From contig CM000151.3 in the NCBI GenBank assembly GCA_000004695.1, positions 6,400,001-6,464,000 on the forward strand: a DNA stretch of 64,000 nucleotides, in the 5' to 3' direction. The position numbers and the translations under genes are program-made. The stretch is from Dictyostelium discoideum. Lineage: Eukaryota. The notes under the pieces were generated by a model. The model did not search any database, was not told the origin of the DNA, and saw only the letters and a list, made by a program, of their open reading frames with translations. Below are positions 9,895 to 59,982 of the stretch, in pieces. How positions within the stretch are numbered: position 1 is the first letter of the stretch; each line of letters begins with the position of its first letter.

Positions 9895-10070
9895 GTGTTA
9901 TACATAAATTGTTTTTTATTATTATTATTATTATTATTTTTCGTTTTGATTTTACTTTATAGGAAATTCCAAATATGGATAAGTATTATTTTAAAAAATT
10001 GATAGATAATTTACTATTAAGGATCATCCAAATTATTTTTATTATTATTAATAATTCTAATAAATTATTT

Positions 10071-14915
<4,845 letters not shown>

Positions 14916-45627: not shown

Positions 45628-46224
45628 TTAGTTTTTTAAAATGAAACCATTTTTTGGAGACTTTGAAATGAACCTATAAATTTGTTCCAATGATAAATGT
45701 TTAATATTTGAAGTATTTCCATTCAATATAAATACAAAGCCACCTGGTTCCAATTTTAGTAAACCTGGGTGCGAATATCCATTACCATTATAATATACTA
45801 TAGTATTGGTTTTAACTAGTCTCATTACTTCATTTCTAAAATTATTATTATTTCTATTTCTAAAATTATTATTATTATTATTATTATTTGGATTATTATT
45901 TGGATTATTATTTGGATTATTTGGATTATAATGGGTTAAATCTTTCATTTTTATTGAGGAACTATCTTTGATTTTATTTTTATTTTTATTCTTTTTATTT
46001 TTAATTTCTTTTTTAAAACAAAAGCAACCACAACAAAATATTAACTTTAGAATATTTCTAATGATTGGAAATTTAAAACATAAGACAATCACTATTACTA
46101 TAACTATAAGAGCTGTCAATAATAATGTAAATTTAGTTGCACAAATTTTTAGTTGTGTATAATAACAAACAACATTTAATCTATAATTATAAAAATAAGT
46201 AAAGGTTAGATAATTAGTTTTTAG

Positions 46225-46313
<89 letters not shown>

Positions 46314-47748
46314 GTTATTATTATTATTATTATTATTTTTAATTACATACAAATTTGGACAAACATCATCACAAGTAAATTCAGAACCAATATTTAAAGA
46401 ATCACCATCTAAAGAGTTATCACCAGATTGAGCACCATTATCAATTTCAGTATCAGAAGTATTAAAATTAATTCTTATACTATCGATAACTTGAGCCACT
46501 TCATTATATAAATCACCAAAACAATGATATGATGAATCTAATTTTGAAGTAGTATAAACTTGAAATACAAAACTATAAATTTCCTTTGATTTAATGGTTA
46601 CTTGTTGATTATTGATAGGATTAATATCACCAGTACAATTAATGATTGTCATTGTATAGTCTGCATTGATTGTACCAGTATTTTGGACGTTTACTCTTAG
46701 TACACCATTTTTTGACATTGATTCAAATCTATCGATTTGGTAATTTATAATTTTACCAGGTGAAATATTAACAATATATTGAAGTGAATCGGCTTTCAAT
46801 GTAATGGTTAACATTGTTCTATGGGATTCATCAAATCTAATTTTCAAAGATCTTGAATCTTGATTACCTGCAATCTGAACCTTTGTACCCAATTGAGAGG
46901 CTATATAATTTCCCTTCTTACCACTGGAAATCAATGCAACATCGGCATTATAATAATCTGCAATTTGATTTTGAAGACAAGAACCAAATAAAGCGGCACA
47001 ACTATTGGGTTGATTTTGAAAAGCACTATAGGAAACACCGATTTTATTACAAGTTAAACCTGATAAATCAAAGAAATTCTGATCCAACACCATACAAGTG
47101 TTTATAGAATTTGGTTGATTGTAGGGAAATACCACTTTCTTATCAGTGAATTGATTGATTTGAGTCGATGATTGAAAATCACCAATAATTCTAACAATTG
47201 CTTGACTAAATGTATCCATACCCATTGGAGCTGAATTTGATAGTATAATATCTTGAGTGATTGGATTTTGATTATAACTATAGGTTAATGTCGCTGTTAT
47301 TGTATATTCAACTTGAGTTTTTGCAACATTATAAACATCATATTTCACCGAACTAAATGATAAACAATGTGCTGATGATGATTTGGACCCTAATAATGAA
47401 CAACCTAAATTTGCTCTTGAATTTTGATCGGCACCAACATAATCTGAAAAAGAACAACTACAACAAAATCCTTGACTGTCTCTAATTAATTTACCATTGG
47501 CATCTATTGCACCTGGACATGTATGATCAGTTGGTTTATCTTTACAACCACTAGTTAAAACATAATCAGTTTTATAAATAACAGTTTCTTTTGGTTGATA
47601 AGCTACATTTTGTACATAAACTAATGGATAATTTATAAATGTTTCTGATTTTTTAAATTTTACTGAAATTGGTATAACTAATGTTTTTAATTTACCATTT
47701 TCATCTTTAATTTCACTAACTTGAAAATTAAATGTTTCTGAATTTTCC

Positions 47749-48690: not shown

Positions 48691-50078
48691 ATGACATTAG
48701 ACCCATATTCAGGATCAGTCGATTGCCGTGACTGGAAGAAATCAGCAATTAAAAAAGCTATTGAAGATGGTATATTTAAAGAACATGACTATGTAATGCT
48801 TTATAATCTTGACGAATTCAGAGCACTTGCCAAAGAAGCCTGCGACAACTTAAAAGGATTACAAACTATGGCAGTTAAATGTAATCCAGTTATGAGCTTA
48901 ATGAAAGAAGCAATTAAAGCTGGTCTTGGTGCTGAAGTTGCTTCATTTGGTGAATTAAGAATTGCAGAAATAGCTGGTTTTGAACCATCTGTAAGTATTC
49001 CAAAAATTTTTAATTCTTTTAAAATAAAAAAAAAATAAAAAAATAAAAAAATAAATCCTAATTTTTTTTTTTAATGAAAAAGAAAATTATATTTGATTCA
49101 CCAATTAAAACAAAAAAAGAATTAGAATATGCATTAAATTTAGGTGTTGTAATTAATATTGATAATTTTGAAGAATTAGAAACTATAGAATCAATTGTTT
49201 CAAAATTTTCAAAGGAAAAATATGAAAGTCTTTCGTTGGGTATTAGAGTGAATCCACAAGTTGGAGCAGGTAAATTAACTGATCTTAGTACAGGTGTACC
49301 AACATCTAAATTTGGTATTGGTATTGAACATAAAGATAAGATCATCGATGCCTATGTACGTAACAAATTTTTAAAGGGAGTTCATATTCATGTTGGATCA
49401 CAAGGTTTTGAAATTTCAAATATATCAGAATCTGCAGTTAAAGTTATGAATTTAGTGAAAGAGATTAATGCACGTGATGATACAAAATCTCAAATTACAT
49501 TCTTTAATATGGGTGGTGGTTTATCAGTAAACTTTGAATCAGAAGAGACTTCACCAACTTTCACTCAATATGCCAATCACATGAAACAATTATTACCAGA
49601 ATTATTCAATGGTGAATTTTTATTGATTACCGAATTTGGTCGTTCCTATTGGGCAAAATGTGGTGTCGTAGTTTCAACAGTTGAATATACAAAATCAAGT
49701 GGTGATCGTGAAATCGCAATTTGTCATGCCGGTGCAAATATGTACATTAGAACCGTTTATCAATTCCCATTGTGGAGAATTAGAGTAACCATTTTCGATT
49801 CAAATGGTGAATATAAAACTGGAAATGAAAAAATCACAGATATCGCTGGTCCTTGTTGTTTTGCCGCTGATGTTTTAGTAAAAGAAAGATTATTACCACC
49901 AATTAAAAAAGATGATTTCATTATGGCACATGATAGTGGTGCTTATATGCTTTCAAGTTATTCTCATTATAATTTAAGATTAGCTCCACCAATTTTCTCT
50001 TTTAATACCACAAATAATACAATTGAATTAATTAAAAAAGGTGAAACTATTGAAGATAAAATTAATTTCTTTTCTTAA
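48691..50078 (+). CDS. Fold-type III PLP-dependent decarboxylase of the Orn/DAP/Arg decarboxylase family, most like diaminopimelate decarboxylase (LysA). 2 exons: join(48691..48990, 49083..50078), about 431 aa.
   Basis: Donor TCT|GTAAGT (48991) and acceptor tttaatgaaaaAG (49081-49082), phase 0. LysA-like motifs present: IRVNPQVGAG, HIHVGSQ, GGGLSV, EFGRSY (EPGR), GPCCFAADV (GPLCESGDV), HDSGAY, SSYSHYN. Confidence 0.8.
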
Positions 50079-50282
50079 AAAAATAAAATTATATTAAAAT
50101 TGTAAATCATTTTTAAACTTTTTATTTTATTAATTAATAATAATAATAATTAATAATAAAATGATTAAATAAAAAAATAAATAAAATAAAAAATTTTAAA
50201 TTAAAGGAGAAATACAAGATATTTATTATTAAATTGGAAAAAAAAGCCAATTATTATTATTATTATTATTGGTTTTTTTTTT

Positions 50283-52161
50283 TTAAAAAAGATCAGAAAT
50301 TAAATCTTTTGACGATGGTTTACAATTTTCAGGAATATCAAATGAAGCAATGATTTGTTTTGAAACTTTGGTAACTTCAAAACAAAGATCTTGAATTAAG
50401 AATGGGATTGATTGAGCAACATTTGGTGAGATTAAGTGATTTGAAACGAACCAACCTAAATCTTCTTCAATGGAGACAAGAGCGTCCAACATAATTAAAT
50501 GAGCTAATGGTTTAACGTTTTTAAGTTTTAATGTATTGATAGAGTTTTGGAAAACGATTTTAGTCATGTGAGCAAAACCTAATTTGACAGCCCATGGAAT
50601 TGCATTGTTAAAAGCGAAATAAGCAGGTTCTTTAGAGTTGCTAATGATTTGTTTTAATTCGGCCAAACGAATCTCTTCTCTAGTTTCAAATAATTGATTA
50701 ATATTTGAAAAATTGAATAATAACGATTTGGCATCTTCACCATCTAAATAGATACGATTGGTAGTGGTATTTGTTTGTTTTTGTTTTACACCTAATAAAT
50801 ACTTGGCCAATTGTTGCATGAGAACAGTATTATCACCTTCATATGTACAAACGATATCACAATCATTTTTAAATTCAGCTATACGATTTGCTGAACGGTA
50901 ACCTTGACCACCACAAGCTTCACGACAAGTTTGGAGTGCTGCAACACAGAACCAACTGTAAACTGCTTTGATACCTGAGCAATGGGCATGGATTGAAGCT
51001 GGTAATTTCTCTTGACATAATTCATTGGTTAAACGTTGAATGTAAAGATCAAACAAGATGGTTCTTGCCAATGGTGCCATAAGACGACGTTGTTGTGAAC
51101 TGAGAGTAATCAATGGAAGCTCATTATTTGCAGATGGACCAAACTGTTTTCTAATATGTGAGAATTCAATAGCAATAGAGAGGGAGGTTTTGGCAGCACC
51201 TGAACAACCTTTAGTGATTGCCATTCTACCAACAATGAATGGTGCCATTGTTGCAGCGAAATTCTTTATTGGTGTATTGAATTGACTCTTGTAAACACCG
51301 TCTTCGCTAACATCACTATATTTGTTTAAAAGGTTCTCTCTTGGGATACGAACTTGATCGAAACGAATTTGACCATTATCAATACCATTCAAACCTAACT
51401 TATGACCACAATCTTTAATGGTGATACCTTTCATGATTGCACCACTCTTTGGACAACGAAGTGGTACAACCAATGCATGAACACCATAATTTGTACCATC
51501 AATGATTAAGTTTGCGAAAACAGTAGTGTAGGTAGCATGAAGATAAGAACCACCAATCCAAAACTTTTCACTTGTTGGTGTTGGTGAATGAATGATAAAC
51601 TCTTTAGTTTGTTTATCGTAATGTGCAGTAGTTTCAATACCACGAACATTTGAACCATGACCAATCTCTGTCATTGCAAAGCAACCCATTGTCTTGAGGG
51701 TATTAGCATCTTCAATATATTTCTCATGTCTTGAGGTACCTAAAAACATGATTGTACCTCCAAATAATGTATAATGAACACCCAATTTGGTACAAACATT
51801 GTTATTATACAATGAAAACATTTCTACAACACCAGCATATCTGTGAAGGTTATTCTTAATATCAGTCAAATGAATTAATCCACTATTTGCAACAGCAACA
51901 CATTGTTCAAGTACTAATTGTCTATAGGTAGCCATATCCAATCCAATGAAATTCTCTTTGAATTTTGGATGATTTCTAATGAATTCTCTTGCTGCATCCT
52001 TATATTTACTTGCTTCAACTGAATCAATTAATAATTTTAATTCTCCAACATTTATATTTGCATCAATTGAATTAAATAATTCTTTTTCTAATACTTCATT
52101 TTTATTATTTGTTGTTTGACTATTAACATCTAAATGTTTTTTAATCTATATTATATATATG

Positions 52162-52204
<43 letters not shown>

Positions 52205-52364: not shown

Positions 52365-52849
52365 TGTTTGAGAGAGATAGAAAGAGAGAAATTAGGATTG
52401 TGTAGAAAAATAAAAATAAAATAAAAAAAAAAAAAAAAAAAATTAAATAAAAAAAAAAAGGTGAAATTTTTAAAATTATTTCATTAAAATTTAAAAAAAT
52501 AAAAAAAAAATGAAAATTTAAAATTTAAAATTTAAAAAAAACAAAAAAAGTGTCTCATCGCGTTATGAAATATCTAAATAAATGATGCCATAAAAATAAA
52601 TTTGAAATTTCCAATGCAATTGGCAACCATTATTTTCATTTTTTTTTTTTTTTTTTTTAAGCCAAAAACGATTATATTAAATCATGAAATGAAATTTCAA
52701 ATAAAAGGCAAAAAAAAAAAAAAGAAAAAAAAAAAAAAATTATTTTTTGTAAAAAAAAAAAAAAATATTATTTTCAAATTATGAATACTAATATTTATTT
52801 CAATTTAGTAATGTCATATGTTAATAATTTTGATTTTTTTTTTTTTCTT

Positions 52850-53171
52850 TTAAAATAATGATAAAGTTCCAATTAATTCTCCACCTAAAATTAAACCCTT
52901 AACACCACCTTCAATTCCTCCAACTAAAACACCACTAGCAACACCAACTAAACTACCTAACAAACTTCCTAAAACATTGAATTGTGCTTTTTCGCCACCA
53001 TAATTAACACTTTGTAATGAACTTGAGGCAATTTCATTCTTTGAGTTATTTTTAATTGAACCGATTTTAGTGATTGATTCTATCGTTTTATATTAAAATA
53101 TTAATTAATATAGTTTTATTTATATAAAAATAAGAAAAAAAAAAAATATGAAACTTACTTAAAATTGACAT
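52850..53171 (-). CDS. Novel small glycine-zipper (GxxxG-repeat) hydrophobic protein, 80 aa. 2 exons: join(complement(53159..53171), complement(52850..53079)). Not in the ORF track.
   Basis: ATGTCAATTTTAA|GTAAGT (MSIL plus 1 nt), with an 80-nt intron ending at aacgatAG (plus 53080-53081). Phase 1 A+AA = K leads into 76 open codons: SITKIGSIKNNSKNEIASSSLQSVNYGGEKAQFNVLGSLLGSLVGVASGVLVGGIEGGVKGLILGGELIGTLSLF, then stop. Codon usage is Dictyostelium-like (GGT/GTT/TTA). The G/S/L-rich tail resembles glycine-zipper 2TM motifs. Confidence 0.45.
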
Positions 53172-54071
53172 TTTTAATTATTTTTATTTGTTTTTTTTTT
53201 TTTTTTTATATTAAGTTTATTGTTTTTTTTAGTTTTTTAATTAAATGATTAATTTAAAAAATAATCTTCATTTAAATATGAAAAAAAAAAATTTAGGAAA
53301 AGAATTATTTAAACAATTTTATTTTAAAAAAAAAAAAATCATATGAACCAATTATAGATTATTCTAAAATTTCGACAACACGATTGGACAAAATAATAAA
53401 CAAAAAAAAAAGGTATTAAAACATTATTAATTTTTAAAAAAAAAACATAAAATAAAATTTATAAAAACTTTGACCCTTTTATAAGAATTATAGAGATATA
53501 TTTAATGATTTTATTCCATACACAAGTAAGTTGTTTTGTTTTAAAAAAAAAAAAAGAAAACTAAAAAAGTAATGATATTAAAAAAAAAAAAAAAAAATGG
53601 GGTGTGTTAAATCTGATATATATAGTTAAATATTTTTTTACCTTTTTTTTATATTAATTACCACACAATTAAATTAATTAAACTAATAAAATGTGGTATT
53701 GGTTTAATGTCTATTTATAGGATTAAAATGAAAACGAAAAAAACCCAATCATAGCATATACAAATTTATATTATATCTTTATCTTTTTCAATTATTTTTA
53801 TCATTAAAAAAAAAAAAAAAAAAAAAAATTATCCTTCATTTAATTAATTATAATTATATTATTTCATTTTTTTTTTTAATTAAAAATATAAATAATAATT
53901 TTATTAATATTAATAGAATTATTATTATTATTATTATTATTTTAAAATTATAAATTATAAATTAAATAAAAATTAAAATTAAATAATTTTAATTTATTTA
54001 ATTTTTATTTAATTTTATTATTATTATTTTTATTATTATTATTATTATTGTAATTATTATTGGTCATTTTT

Positions 54072-55950
54072 TTAAAAAAGATCAGAAATTAAATCCTTTG
54101 ATGATGGTTTACAATTTTCAGGAATATCAAATGAAGCGATAATTTGTTTTGAAACTTTAGTAACTTCAAAACAAAGATCTTGAATTAAGAATGGGATTGA
54201 TTGAGCAACATTTGGTGAGATTAAATGATTTGAAACGAACCAACCTAAATCTTCTTCAATGGAGACGAGAGCATCCAACATAATTAAATGAGTTAATGGT
54301 TTAACGTTTTTAAGTTTTAATGTATTGATAGAGTTTTGGAAAACGATTTTAGTCATGTGAGCAAAACCTAATTTGACAGCCCATGGAATTGCATTGTTAA
54401 AAGCGAAATAAGCAGATTCTTTAGAGTTGTCAATGATTTGTTTTAATTCGGCCAAACGCATCTCTTCTCTAGTTTCAAATAATTGATTTATATTCGAAAA
54501 ATTGAAAAATAACGATTTGGCATCTTCACCATCTAAATAGATACGATTGGTAGTGGTATTTGTTTGTTTTTGTTTTACACCTAATAAATACTTGGCCAAT
54601 TGTTGCATGAGAACAGTGTTATCACCTTCATATGTGCAAATGATATCACAATCATTTTTAAATTCAGCTATACGATTTGCTGAACGGTAACCCTGGCCAC
54701 CACAAGCTTCACGACAAGTTTGGAGTGCTGCAACACAGAACCAACTGTAAACTGCTTTGATACCAGAGCAGTGAGCATGGATTGAAGCTGGTAATTTCTC
54801 TTGACATAATTCATTGGTTAAACGTTGAATGTAAAGATCAAACAAGATGGTTCTTGCCAATGGTGCCATAAGACGACGTTGTTGAGAACTGAGAGTAATC
54901 AATGGAAGCTCTTTATTTGAAGATGGGCCAAATTGTTTTCTAATATGTGAGAATTCAATAGCAATAGAGAGGGAGGTTTTAGCAGCACCTGAACAACCTT
55001 TAGTGATTGCCATTCTACCAACGATGAATGGTGACATTGTTGCAGCGAAATTCTTTATTGGTGTATTGAATTGGCTCTTGTAAACACCATCTTCGCTAAC
55101 ATCACTATATTTGTTTAAAAGGTTCTCTCTTGGGATACGAACTTGATCGAAACGAATTTGACCATTATCAATACCATTCAAACCTAACTTATGACCACAA
55201 TCTTTAATGGTGATACCTTTCATGATTGCACCACTCTTTGGACAACGAAGTGGTACAATAAATGCATGAATACCATAGTTTGTACCATCAATGATTAAGT
55301 TTGCGAAAACTACAGCATAGGTAGCATGAAGATAAGCGCAACCAATCCAAAACTTTTCACTTGTTGGTGTTGGTGAATGAATGATAAACTCTTTAGTTTG
55401 TTTATCGTAATGTGCAGTAGTTTCAATACCACGAACATTTGAACCATGACCAATCTCTGTCATTGCAAAGCAACCCATTGTCTTGAGGGTATTAGCATCT
55501 TCAATATATTTCTCATGTCTTGAGGTACCTAAAAATATAATTGGACCTCCAAATAATGTATATTGAACACTCAATTTCGTTAAAATATTATTATTATACA
55601 ATGCAAACATTTCTAAAGCGCCTATATATCTGTGAAGGTTATTCTTAATATCAGTAAAATGAATTAATCCACGATTTGCAATTGCAGCACATTGCTCAAG
55701 TACTAATTGTCTATAGGTAGCCATATCCAATCCAATGAAATTCTCTTTGAATTTTGGATGATTTCTAATGAATTCTCTTGTTTCATCCTTATATTTACTT
55801 TCTTCAACTGAATCAATTAATAATTTTAATTCTCCAACATTAATATTTGTATCAATTGAATTAAATAATTCTTTTTCTAAAACTTCATCCTTATTATTTG
55901 TTGTTTGACTATTATTAACTTCTAAATGTTTTTTTATCTATATTATATAA

Positions 55951-55981
<31 letters not shown>

Positions 55982-56943: not shown

Positions 56944-57319
56944 TTATTTATTTAATTTTTTTAAATTTATTGGTAAAATTTTAGAAAATATAGAAATTGT
57001 TGGTTTACTTTTTGAATTTATTCTTGAATTTACATTTTTCAAATAGTTTAAAAGATGATGTTCATCATATTTAATAATTCTTTTTCTTGGGGAAAGATCA
57101 ATTGTTGATAAATATTTTGCCAATGGTTTTGGATGATATTCAACTAAATGTTCTAAAATATGACTATGTCCTCTTGAATAAGATATTGAAATATGTTCTT
57201 TAGTTAATGGTAATGATAATGGTGATACAAATATCATTGACGATAATCCATTAATTGATAAATGAATCGGACTTGATGGTGATGATGAAATTTGTTGTTG
57301 ATTTTTTGTTGGTGATAAA

Positions 57320-57357
<38 letters not shown>

Positions 57358-59818
57358 TGTTGGTGATGATGAAATTGAATTTATTGGTAAAATTGGTAAA
57401 TTTACTGTTGGTATTGATGATGATTGGATTGGTGAAGAGGAAGAAGAAGGAGATGAAGAAGATGAAGAAGATGATGAAGATGAAGATAAAGAAATTGATG
57501 AAGTTGATAGTGAATTTGAAGGTATCATTATTGGTGAAACCTTATTACTCATTGATGGTGAAGAAATACTATTGATATTGTTATTATTGTTATTATTATT
57601 ATTATTAATTGATAAAGTATGATAAATTGGTGGTGGAGATGATGAATTTGGAGTACGTGGTGTAGTTGAACCACTTGGTTGTAAACAATATTTTATAATA
57701 TCTAAATAACCATAATTGAAAGCAGGTTTTAAAATATGAGAAAAATCTAAATTAACAGATACAGTTCTTGATACAACATCTTTAAAATATTTTAAAGTTG
57801 TAAGATCACCAGCTTCACCAATTGCAATCATTGTTGCTTCTGTGATTTGTACATCTCTTGGACAATATTGTTCGATAATATATTTAACAGTATCAAAACA
57901 AGTACCAGAGATAGCATTGATTAAAGCTTGTTCAGTACACCCTTCAGTCCTATTCTTTTGAAGGAACTGAATGACATCTAAATTACCATTGGAAGCAGCA
58001 TTGTTAATGGCCGCTTTACTACAAGGTTGGCCAGAATTATGTAAAAACTTGACCATCTCTAAATCACCCAAATAAGCTGCATTGCTAACGGCCCTACTTG
58101 TAGCTCCTTCAGTACGATGATTCAATAGATAACGTACCACCTCTTCATGACCATTATAAACTGCTTTATCAACAGCATCGGTTGTACAATGTGCAGATGT
58201 TCTATTCTCTGTTAAATATTTAACAATTGATAAATGACCATTTATAGCTGCCTTATCAATTGCATTACCGATGGATAACGTTTGGTCCAATTCATTTAAA
58301 TATTGAACGATTTCAAAGAAACCACTTGCAGATGAAATTTCCATACCACTACAATAGGATTGAGGTTGTAGATAAAAAGGTTCACCACCAAATATAACCA
58401 AAGCTTTAATTGCTGCTAAATTATTATATATACAACAATCTGAGAGTAAATTTGGGTTGAAACCACCATCTGGTATTGGTTTCTCTTGAAGTAGATAAGC
58501 CAATAGATCAGGTCTATCAACGAATCTAACAGCAATATCGAATGCTTTAGCAGTGATTTCAATTCCCAATCTATTACGACAAACTTTAATCAATTCTAAA
58601 TTCTTATATAATAGAGCAGATGCAATGAAATCCTCATTAAAGTTTACTCTAAAGAAACCTTCGAAATCAATATTACCAGCATGAGACATATAAAATTCTA
58701 AAATTTCCAATTGACCTTTACTAATTGACAATGTGAAAACTTCAATATTATTTGGTTGATATAATGTATACAAATATTTTACAATCTCAATATGACCACC
58801 TTCAATTGCTCTTTTTGTAGCACTATACAATGGTGATTCAATATGTGAATCTGGTGCCAATACAACAGTACTTGATGATCTACCACCTCTTGGACTATAG
58901 GGTATATTAATTAATGGTGTTGTATTGGTTGGTGGTATAATATTATTTTGAATTAAATATTTTAAACAATCTAAATGACCATATTGTGCTGCTAAATCTA
59001 ATGCTTTTGACCTTTTTGGTGTTGATGGTGGTGTTGATGAATTTATAATTGGTGATGATCCATTACTATTATTATTACTATTATTATTACTACCACTATT
59101 GTTACCACTATTATTATTATTATTATTACCACTATTATTATTGATATTATTATTATTATTATTAAATCCACTGCCACCCAGTATATTACCATTATTACCT
59201 AAATTTTTATGAAGATATTGTAAAATTTCTAAACTACCATTTGAAGAAGCATGATCAATTGCAAATAAAGTACATGGTTCATTCAATTGTTGATGAATAT
59301 ATTTAACCAATTCTAAATCATTGAATGCAACAGCATTTTCCATTGCACTATCAGTGCAACCATCATTTCTATTCTCTTTTAAGAATTTCACCATTTGTAA
59401 ATTACCCCAACGTGATGCATTATCGATAGCATAGGGTGATGCAGTGTAACCTTTGTTATGTAAATAAACCACCATTTCATAATTACCATAATATGCAGCA
59501 TGATCAATTAATGTTGGATATAATCTTGGAAAATATTCAATATATCTTTCAAAACACATTTTAAAAATATTGAAATCTGGTATTGAAAATATGATTTTTC
59601 TACAAACTGATGATATTATCAAATTATGACCTTGTTGAATCTTATCTTTAATTAATCCCCAATGTTTATGATTTATCATCCATTCTAATGATATTATATC
59701 TTTATATTTTCTACTTATAACTTTACTTCCAAATCTTTTAACACCTTTAAATATTTTACTTCTAATTTTAAAATTTGATAAAATTTTTGAAAATAAAATT
59801 GAATTTTTATCATCATTT

Positions 59819-59856
<38 letters not shown>

Positions 59857-59982
59857 ATTATTATACATTTCCAACTCTTCATTTTTAATTTCTGATTGAA
59901 TTGTTGGTGATTTTAATGTTAAGATTGATCTTGATGTTGGTGAACATTCTGTAACTATTATTGATGTTGTAGTTAATGACAT
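56944..59982 (-). CDS. Protein with about 20 divergent ankyrin-like repeats (consensus ..A.d.Aa.nGhLe.vkyLhen.t.gCt..a....), N/S-rich linkers, 1012 aa, single exon.
   Basis: Continuous ORF with ATG at 59982. Repeated ~33-aa units such as AIDNASRWGNLQMVKFLKENRNDGCTDSAMENAVAFNDLELVKYIHQQ and AIDKAAINGHLSIVKYLTENRTSAHCTTDAVDKAVYNGHEEVVRYLLNHRTEG. Confidence 0.7.

Follow-up and report, generated by a model that had tools for sequence, protein, structure and literature searches.

A stretch of 64,000 nucleotides of Dictyostelium discoideum DNA (the window) contains a two-exon mini-gene located between two ACOX paralogues. The initial annotation, made from the sequence alone, described it as an unannotated gene for an 80-aa glycine-zipper protein, likened the product to bacterial two-transmembrane (2TM) proteins of the YMGG/SlyB type and found its position beside peroxisomal genes unexpected. 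The locus raises the question of what this gene is, to which family its product belongs and what a protein with such a glycine-rich segment might do.

Gene structure and identity

Reading of the minus strand and in silico splicing reproduced the proposed two-exon model, including the very short first exon (Table 1). Splicing yields a CDS of 243 nt for an 80-aa product, MSILKSITKIGSIKNNSKNEIASSSLQSVNYGGEKAQFNVLGSLLGSLVGVASGVLVGGIEGGVKGLILGGELIGTLSLF. The protein contains a single methionine; exon 2 thus lacks an ATG in frame and depends on splicing for a start codon. A bacterial-style ORF list yields only a 37-aa TTG fragment at the locus, which is why the mini-gene was missing from the open reading frame track. 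No further family members were found in the window using tblastn with the mini-gene product (BeiA, see below), its paralogue sigN144 and a Dictyostelium dimigraforme family protein (P0005), or using the 13-nt-exon pattern.

Table 1. Features of the locus in window coordinates
Feature	Coordinates	Strand	Description
beiA exon 1	53171..53159	-	13 nt, ATGTCAATTTTAA; Met-Ser-Ile-Leu and first base of codon 5
beiA intron	53158..53080	-	79 nt, phase 1, GTAAGT...ATAG, 10% GC
beiA exon 2	53079..52850	-	230 nt, codons 5-80 and TAA stop (52852..52850), 31% GC
Hydrophobic glycine-zipper coding segment, residues 38-80	52853..52981	-	Glycine chain, hydropathy, predicted helix
Conserved upstream block	53339..53388	-	~-217 to -168 from ATG; candidate promoter element
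Conserved 3'-UTR block	52790..52820	-	CATATGACATTACTAAATTGAAATAAATATT, aligns with D. firmibasis CATATGGCATTATTAAATTGTAATAAATATT
ACOX ORF	50283-51941	-	Pfam ACOX_C_alpha1
ACOX ORF	54072-55730	-	Pfam ACOX_C_alpha1

Two noncoding blocks are conserved in Dictyostelium firmibasis. The upstream block contains a 21-nt exact match common to both species (ATCTATAATTGGTTCATATGA), and in the rest of the upstream sequence, which is AT-rich, the alignment reaches only ~60-64%. An AATAAA at 52799..52794 (minus strand) is the probable polyadenylation signal.

The 80-aa sequence is an exact match to XP_643324.1 / EAL69331.1 / UniProt Q75JL9, "hssA/2C/7E family protein [Dictyostelium discoideum AX4]". Its gene identifier, DDB_G0276063, was reached indirectly, by a STRING pairing and by synteny with hgrA. 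The STRING table in the PMC12821622 supplement pairs Q75JL9 with DDB_G0276063. The gene hgrA (HAP2-GCS1) is DDB_G0276069 (PMC4910948), and the HAP2-GCS1 ORF of the window (46221-47348, minus strand) lies three genes from the mini-gene, with ACOX and ornithine-decarboxylase genes between. The same gene order, from HAP2-GCS1 to the orthologue of the mini-gene, is present in D. firmibasis. The DDB_G0276xxx numbering implies AX4 chromosome 2. DDB_G0276063 has been published as beiA, originally cupA, a late cup-specific gene (PMC6198379, PMC8808424), and the mini-gene is almost certainly beiA (DDB_G0276063, formerly cupA; Q75JL9). The description as unannotated was therefore mistaken: NCBI and UniProt already carry the exact protein, and the gene has been published together with RNA-seq data and promoter-lacZ constructs. 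Earlier publications cover the gene and the 13-nt first exon as well as the family and the expression pattern, and the promoter serves as a standard marker of cup cells. The literature yielded no experimental work on BeiA as a protein, be it localisation, a knockout phenotype or detection by proteomics; Q75JL9 appeared there only in the STRING network table.

Expression in cup cells

Published RNA-seq answers the question of whether the mini-gene is transcribed at all, absence of transcription being one of the outcomes that the initial annotation named as fatal to its model. The time course for DDB_G0276063 is 0, 0, 2.7, 0.7, 1.5, 165, and 743 at 0, 4, 8, 12, 16, 20, and 24 h (PMC6198379 supplementary file 5). 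In mature cell types, expression is 739 TPM in cup, 27 in spore, 23 in stalk, and 0 in vegetative cells (full cell-type row 0, 1.6, 739, 27, 23, 0; PMC6198379). The gene was among the late cup-specific genes that prompted the cell-type RNA-seq study (PMC6198379). A beiA promoter-lacZ construct, dictyBase pDd17-gal-DDB_G0276063, is active in cups (PMC6198379, PMC8808424), and was used to show that cdl1a-null mutants are without cup cells (PMC8808424). These data show that beiA transcription is confined to cup cells and to the last stage of fruiting-body formation, and that it lies downstream of the Cdl1a-dependent cup programme.

Family membership

A 13-nt exon-1 ORF is found in 89 of 96 sigN-like genes and is a published hallmark of the hssA/2C/7E (SigN, PF05710) family (PMC2257962; also PMC6198379). 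Genes of the family have two exons separated by ~80 nt of intron, an exon-1 ORF of 13 nt and a product of <120 aa; beiA fits this structure with its 13-nt exon 1, 79-nt phase-1 intron and 80-aa product. BeiA also shares the N-terminal family signature M-[ST]-[IL]-[IL]-x-S-I-[ST]-x-I-G-x-x-K. SITKIGSIK, at residues 6-14, lines up with SISSIGNIK in the D. dimigraforme protein P0005, which matches PF05710 at 68 bits, and both proteins carry the SI[ST]xIGxIK signature and an LGxxxGxLVGxxxGVLVG core in alignment. Further likenesses are a Gly-rich hydrophobic C-terminal half, predicted as transmembrane in SigN1, and developmental regulation confined to the stalk/cup (somatic) lineage; in the literature data beiA is induced at 20-24 h in the cup lineage.

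Direct sequence comparisons gave weaker evidence. The Pfam profile PF05710 (HssA/B-related, named "Coiled") matches BeiA at 14.7 bits (E = 0.057), the D. firmibasis orthologue at 14.1 bits, sigN144 at 18.8 bits and the sigN144 orthologue at 17.9 bits, all under the gathering threshold of 21.4. All four members of this beiA/sigN144 clade match from profile position 1, and PF05710 is the top Pfam match for sigN144 and its orthologue. None of 10 shuffled controls, with each half of BeiA shuffled separately, matched PF05710 at E <= 1. BLASTP of BeiA against P0005 gave only E = 0.15, and hhalign, with P0005 alone as target, aligned no more than residues 6-26 (the N-terminal 21; E = 1.2e-4, probability 55%).

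Database searches recovered few relatives. A word-indexed homology search with BeiA returned only the D. firmibasis orthologue, and the same search with an approximate SigN-like query returned only P0005. Two real relatives emerged when 1.84 billion representatives were searched exhaustively with phmmer: the D. firmibasis orthologue and DDB_G0269390 (Q55E53, chromosome 1, 81 aa), which is 44% identical to BeiA over its full length (E = 3.4e-10). A 1037-aa protein in the same list (P0004) was rejected as a repeat-protein artefact without an aligned stretch. A search with the clade profile added one sequence, the D. firmibasis orthologue of DDB_G0269390 (P0006). DDB_G0269390 has the synonym sigN144 (PMC6198379 table), and Additional file 1 of Vicente et al. 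lists sigN144 with exons 13//232, an intron of 78, a product of 81 aa and 34% identity to SigN1 (PMC2257962). The sequence link between BeiA and the family is thus transitive, from BeiA to sigN144 and from sigN144 to SigN1. BeiA is absent from the 96-gene list of Vicente et al., which has no 80-aa entry on chromosome 2 (PMC2257962).

Differences from the canonical family are also clear. Canonical members are Cys/Ser/Gly-rich and have C-terminal CGC motifs, whereas BeiA contains 15 Gly, 12 Ser, and no Cys. The SigN Groups 1 and 2 are prestalk genes expressed from ~10 h, in contrast to beiA in cup cells at 20-24 h, and beiA falls in a small separate clade with sigN144. The two genes of this clade share the 13-nt exon 1, an intron of similar length (78 nt in sigN144), a register of eight glycines and the presence of a D. 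firmibasis orthologue. Unlike beiA, sigN144 has low and different expression (PMC6198379 table), encodes a more polar C-terminal end (GGKRDSYLYIF) and carries the label "hypothetical protein" or "unknown" where beiA carries the family name. The gene-structure evidence for membership is stronger than the sequence evidence. Because the canonical Cys motifs are missing, BeiA would be placed in a divergent subclade and not among the canonical members. We conclude that BeiA appears to represent a divergent, cysteine-free subclade of hssA/2C/7E, in line with its curated name.

Glycine zipper and predicted structure

The glycine-zipper spacing described at the outset was confirmed. Glycines at residues 42, 46, 50, 54, 58, 62, 66, and 70 form an eight-glycine chain with exact i,i+4 spacing, and additional glycines are found at 59, 63, 71, and 75. 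When residues 38-80 were shuffled, 5 of 200,000 sequences contained an eight-glycine chain. The same chain is present in sigN144, where 10 of 200,000 shuffles reach it, and the register is preserved in the alignment with sigN144 and its orthologue. The Kyte-Doolittle 19-residue maximum of BeiA is 1.97 at residues 40-58, above the classical threshold of 1.6. The predicted hydrophobic helix carries the (G/A/S)xxxGxxxG pattern by which glycine-zipper motifs are recognized. The N-terminus has a Kyte-Doolittle mean of -0.35 over residues 1-19 and contains K5, K9, and K14; it is not hydrophobic, which argues that BeiA has no classical signal peptide.

AlphaFold2, run on a three-sequence alignment, predicted helices at residues 3-23 and 40-77 with low confidence (pLDDT 62.6, pTM 0.27). 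When the clade profile was searched against PDB sequences, no match at E <= 10 was returned. The proposed 2TM arrangement was not supported, as residues ~38-60 form the one stretch with the length and lack of charge needed to span a membrane and AlphaFold2 places a single low-confidence helix over the zipper. A hairpin was rejected as unlikely: residues 66-80 are too short (15 aa) and charged (E72), and E61 and K65 also lie past residue 60.

Transmembrane glycine zippers are found in VacA, MscL, C19orf12, and Romo1, and C19orf12 and Romo1 are families of glycine-rich membrane helices. BeiA resembles them in that small residues recur at small-xxx-small spacing on one side of a hydrophobic helix. 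They form a motif class and not a homologous family, and the membrane helix of BeiA is predicted.

Conservation and selection

The open frame is kept in another dictyostelid, lack of such conservation being the second outcome that the initial annotation named as fatal. The mini-gene is a real, spliced, protein-coding gene. In the syntenic D. firmibasis orthologue (KAK5577695.1, L001 10001-10327), the 13-nt exon 1 is identical and the splice phase unchanged. Its intron is 84 nt long and diverged; UTRs and flanks align poorly, and the exons are conserved. Between the two coding sequences, 13 differences are synonymous and one amino acid is changed (S28A), giving dS = 0.28, dN = 0.011, and dN/dS = ~0.04. 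The probability under neutrality of at least 13 of 15 changes being synonymous is 4e-7. The comparison shows strong purifying selection on the beiA coding sequence at the protein level.

This result bears on the possibility that the beiA transcript and not the protein is functional. Such a case has been reported for hssA, which still suppressed the STATa phenotype when its construct carried a frame shift. The excess of synonymous changes and the low dN/dS argue for a function in the protein and not in the RNA alone. The free divergence of the intron and UTRs, and a glycine register shared with a paralogue at only 44% identity, also count against a functional RNA, which we consider quite improbable for beiA.

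Comparison with bacterial families

Searches against the suggested bacterial glycine-zipper profiles did not support the proposed relationship. PF13441 (Gly-zipper_YMGG) scored 10 bits against BeiA (E = 0.76; cut-off 28.9), and PF13488 (Gly-zipper_Omp) was not listed for BeiA and scored 11.5 bits against sigN144 (cut-off 25). No bacterial homologues of BeiA were found in the exhaustive phmmer search of 1.84 billion representatives. Membership in the YMGG/SlyB type was rejected on these scores, on the spliced eukaryotic gene and on a set of relatives that comprises only Dictyostelium proteins and one spurious repeat protein.

The best Pfam match of BeiA is Bacteriocin_IIc (PF10439) at 18.6 bits (E = 0.0018; threshold 27.1), spanning residues 21-71 of BeiA and positions 7-57 of the 59-position profile; the orthologue scores 17.8 bits. 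No such match was obtained for sigN144 or its orthologue, and the G32-G33 pair of BeiA corresponds to G-R and G-I in the sigN144 pair, so that the GG site is not conserved. Membership in Bacteriocin_IIc was rejected on the sub-threshold score, the paralogues without a match and the unconserved GG pair. The other weak Pfam matches of the clade are DUF5862, C19orf12, Romo1, Gly-zipper_YMGG, and Gly-zipper_Omp; C19orf12, Romo1, and the Gly-zipper families score 10-12 bits, far under their thresholds. Shuffling abolishes all of these weak matches, which points to the ordered GxxxG pattern and not to composition alone. For a period-4 motif, scores of 10-18 bits find their simplest explanation in convergence rather than homology.

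The resemblance to class II bacteriocins with a double-glycine leader is one of architecture: both are short and have a polar, leader-like N-terminus, a Gly-Gly and a GxxxG-rich hydrophobic helix. BeiA differs in its eukaryotic, spliced gene, in a GG pair that is not conserved in the paralogue and in its score below 27.1. If the likeness were functional, zipper oligomers of BeiA would permeabilise membranes as class II bacteriocins do and protect the spore mass. The top rank of Bacteriocin_IIc among the Pfam matches, which 0 of 10 shuffles reproduce, is in keeping with such a pore-forming or antimicrobial role, as are the Gly-Gly at 32-33 ahead of the hydrophobic part and the very late, cup-restricted expression, at a stage and place where related family members are very high. 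Against it stand the sub-threshold score, its absence in the sigN144 pair and the context of a spliced gene in a Dictyostelium family of ~100 members, in which the resemblance is most simply GxxxG convergence. No literature report of antimicrobial activity was found. An antimicrobial BeiA is improbable on this evidence. The broader proposal, that BeiA and its relatives in the ~100-gene hssA/2C/7E family act as pore-forming or antimicrobial glycine-zipper peptides of eukaryotes and have converged on class II bacteriocins, is likewise speculative and quite doubtful.

Genomic context

Both ACOX ORFs flank beiA as described. They lie within a 1.94-kb duplicated segment (50250-52190 and 54041-55981, 95.3% identical). 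beiA is outside the duplication, and the window contains no second copy of it. The D. firmibasis locus encodes a single ACOX, downstream of the beiA orthologue, and an ankyrin-repeat gene directly upstream. The upstream ACOX copy was thus either inserted recently on the line leading to D. discoideum or lost from D. firmibasis. A functional tie between the mini-gene and ACOX is not borne out. One of the two flanking copies is a 95%-identical duplicate absent at the D. firmibasis locus; the paralogue sigN144 is on another chromosome, so adjacency to ACOX is no functional argument. The zipper spacing and the position between ACOX paralogues are real. The wider reading built on them, of an unannotated gene akin to bacterial YMGG/SlyB-type 2TM proteins and functionally tied to peroxisomal ACOX, also conflicts with the published status of the gene, the Pfam scores, the lack of bacterial relatives and the short second hydrophobic stretch, and is very unlikely to be correct.

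Proposed function

Overall, the best explanation, which we hold to be likely, is that the mini-gene is beiA, a divergent cysteine-free member of the Dictyostelium-specific hssA/2C/7E (SigN, PF05710) family, with a helix that would oligomerise in a membrane. Counting against this explanation are the sub-threshold PF05710 scores, the lack of cysteine, the low-confidence AlphaFold2 model and the hssA frame-shift result.

In the proposed mechanism, the N-terminus (residues 1 to ~30) would be a hydrophilic, helix-prone family signature without the hydrophobic core of a signal peptide. It would be followed by a hydrophobic helix of ~40 residues bearing a (GxxxG)7 zipper. This helix may insert in a tail-anchor-like manner into the membrane of cup-cell vesicles or the plasma membrane, and its glycine face may allow tight packing into homo-oligomers, or into hetero-oligomers with other family members. 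SigN1 has a predicted TM domain at aa 54-76, and SigN immunostaining is seen in small vesicles (PMC2257962). These observations count for a membrane oligomer, together with the conserved glycine chain, the hydropathy of 1.97, the AlphaFold2 helices and the weak Pfam matches to membrane-helix families. The charged residues E61, K65, and E72 count against it, as they suit a soluble or interfacial amphipathic helix equally well. That BeiA forms a membrane-embedded helix oligomer in cup cells is the likeliest of the mechanisms considered, and is put forward tentatively.

BeiA might instead be secreted as a matrix or adhesion peptide that holds the spore mass, its Gly-rich segment self-assembling and not spanning a membrane. 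Cup cells are thought to support and hold the spore head. Antibodies to SigN Group 2 disaggregate mounds, SigN composition is like that of matrix proteins and the small-vesicle staining could be secretory (PMC2257962). A secreted BeiA is nevertheless unlikely, given its N-terminus without a hydrophobic signal-peptide core and its lack of cysteines to cross-link a matrix protein. Plasma-membrane or matrix staining was not detected for SigN (PMC2257962).

The perfectly phased (GxxxG)7 zipper shared within the cysteine-free BeiA/sigN144 subclade offers a concrete, testable hypothesis for BeiA, a membrane-helix oligomer. The ~50-nt conserved promoter block is a candidate cup-specific cis element. 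Mini-exons hide genes of this kind from ORF-based scans, and possibly from automatic annotation of other dictyostelid genomes. The strong protein-level constraint on beiA between D. discoideum and D. firmibasis is relevant to the debate over whether RNA or protein is the active product of hssA-type genes. If the improbable antimicrobial reading were true, a family of antimicrobial peptides made late by cup cells would suggest a defensive role for this evolutionarily novel cell type.

Genes around the late cup-cell-specific gene beiA were assigned by Pfam, and the gene order is syntenic with D. fi­rmibasis. The two ornithine decarboxylase ORFs probably form one gene with an intron between them. 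Two acyl-CoA oxidase (ACOX) genes lie within a 1.94-kb tandem duplication, the copies of which are 95.3% identical and offset by 3791 bp. At the syntenic locus of D. firmibasis (L001) there is a single ACOX, which lies downstream of the beiA orthologue. Therefore, either D. discoideum has recently gained the upstream copy or D. firmibasis has lost it.

Features of the beiA region and of a D. dimigraforme locus (~, approximate)
Feature	Position	Strand	Basis
HAP2-GCS1 gamete fusogen, hgrA (DDB_G0276069)	window 46221-47348	minus	Pfam
Ornithine decarboxylase, two ORFs	window 48691-50078	plus	Pfam
ACOX paralogues, two duplicated segments	window 50250-52190 and 54041-55981	minus	
Conserved beiA 3′-UTR block with AATAAA	window 52790-52820	minus	common to D. 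discoideum and D. firmibasis
Conserved beiA upstream block, ~50 nt, about -217 to -168 from ATG	window 53339-53388	minus	conservation with D. firmibasis
Second conserved stretch, TTTTAATACC	window 53412-53421	minus	
Ankyrin-repeat protein, ~1012 aa	window 56944-59982	minus	Pfam
Gene of PF05710 protein P0005, 105 aa	JBTAPM010000036.1 (L002) 10001-10727		

The upstream block of beiA includes a 21-nt exact match with D. firmibasis, ATCTATAATTGGTTCATATGA, and a second conserved stretch lies nearby. The remaining promoter is AT-rich and aligns poorly between the two species. As a candidate cis element, the block may drive late cup-specific expression, which is possibly Cdl1a-dependent. The conserved 3′-UTR block is located ~50 nt past the stop codon and contains a probable polyadenylation signal.

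An exhaustive search also matched P0004, a long tandem-repeat protein of 1037 aa, at E = 1e-5 with no aligned stretch. P0004 was rejected as a relative and attributed to a repeat or low-complexity artefact.

Annotation of beiA and its paralogue is inconsistent. DDB_G0276063 (BeiA) is named "hssA/2C/7E family protein" yet is not among Vicente's 96-gene sigN list, whereas its paralogue sigN144 (DDB_G0269390) is in that list, yet NCBI and expression tables label it "hypothetical protein" or "unknown". The D. dimigraforme protein P0005 begins with MIKKVIFWMRYKKFFYSKINKKK, followed by the family core TSISSIGNIK. Its first exon looks mis-modelled, the 13-nt exon having apparently been overlooked by automatic annotation. 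Annotations of newer dictyostelid genomes may systematically miss hssA-type genes or describe them wrongly.
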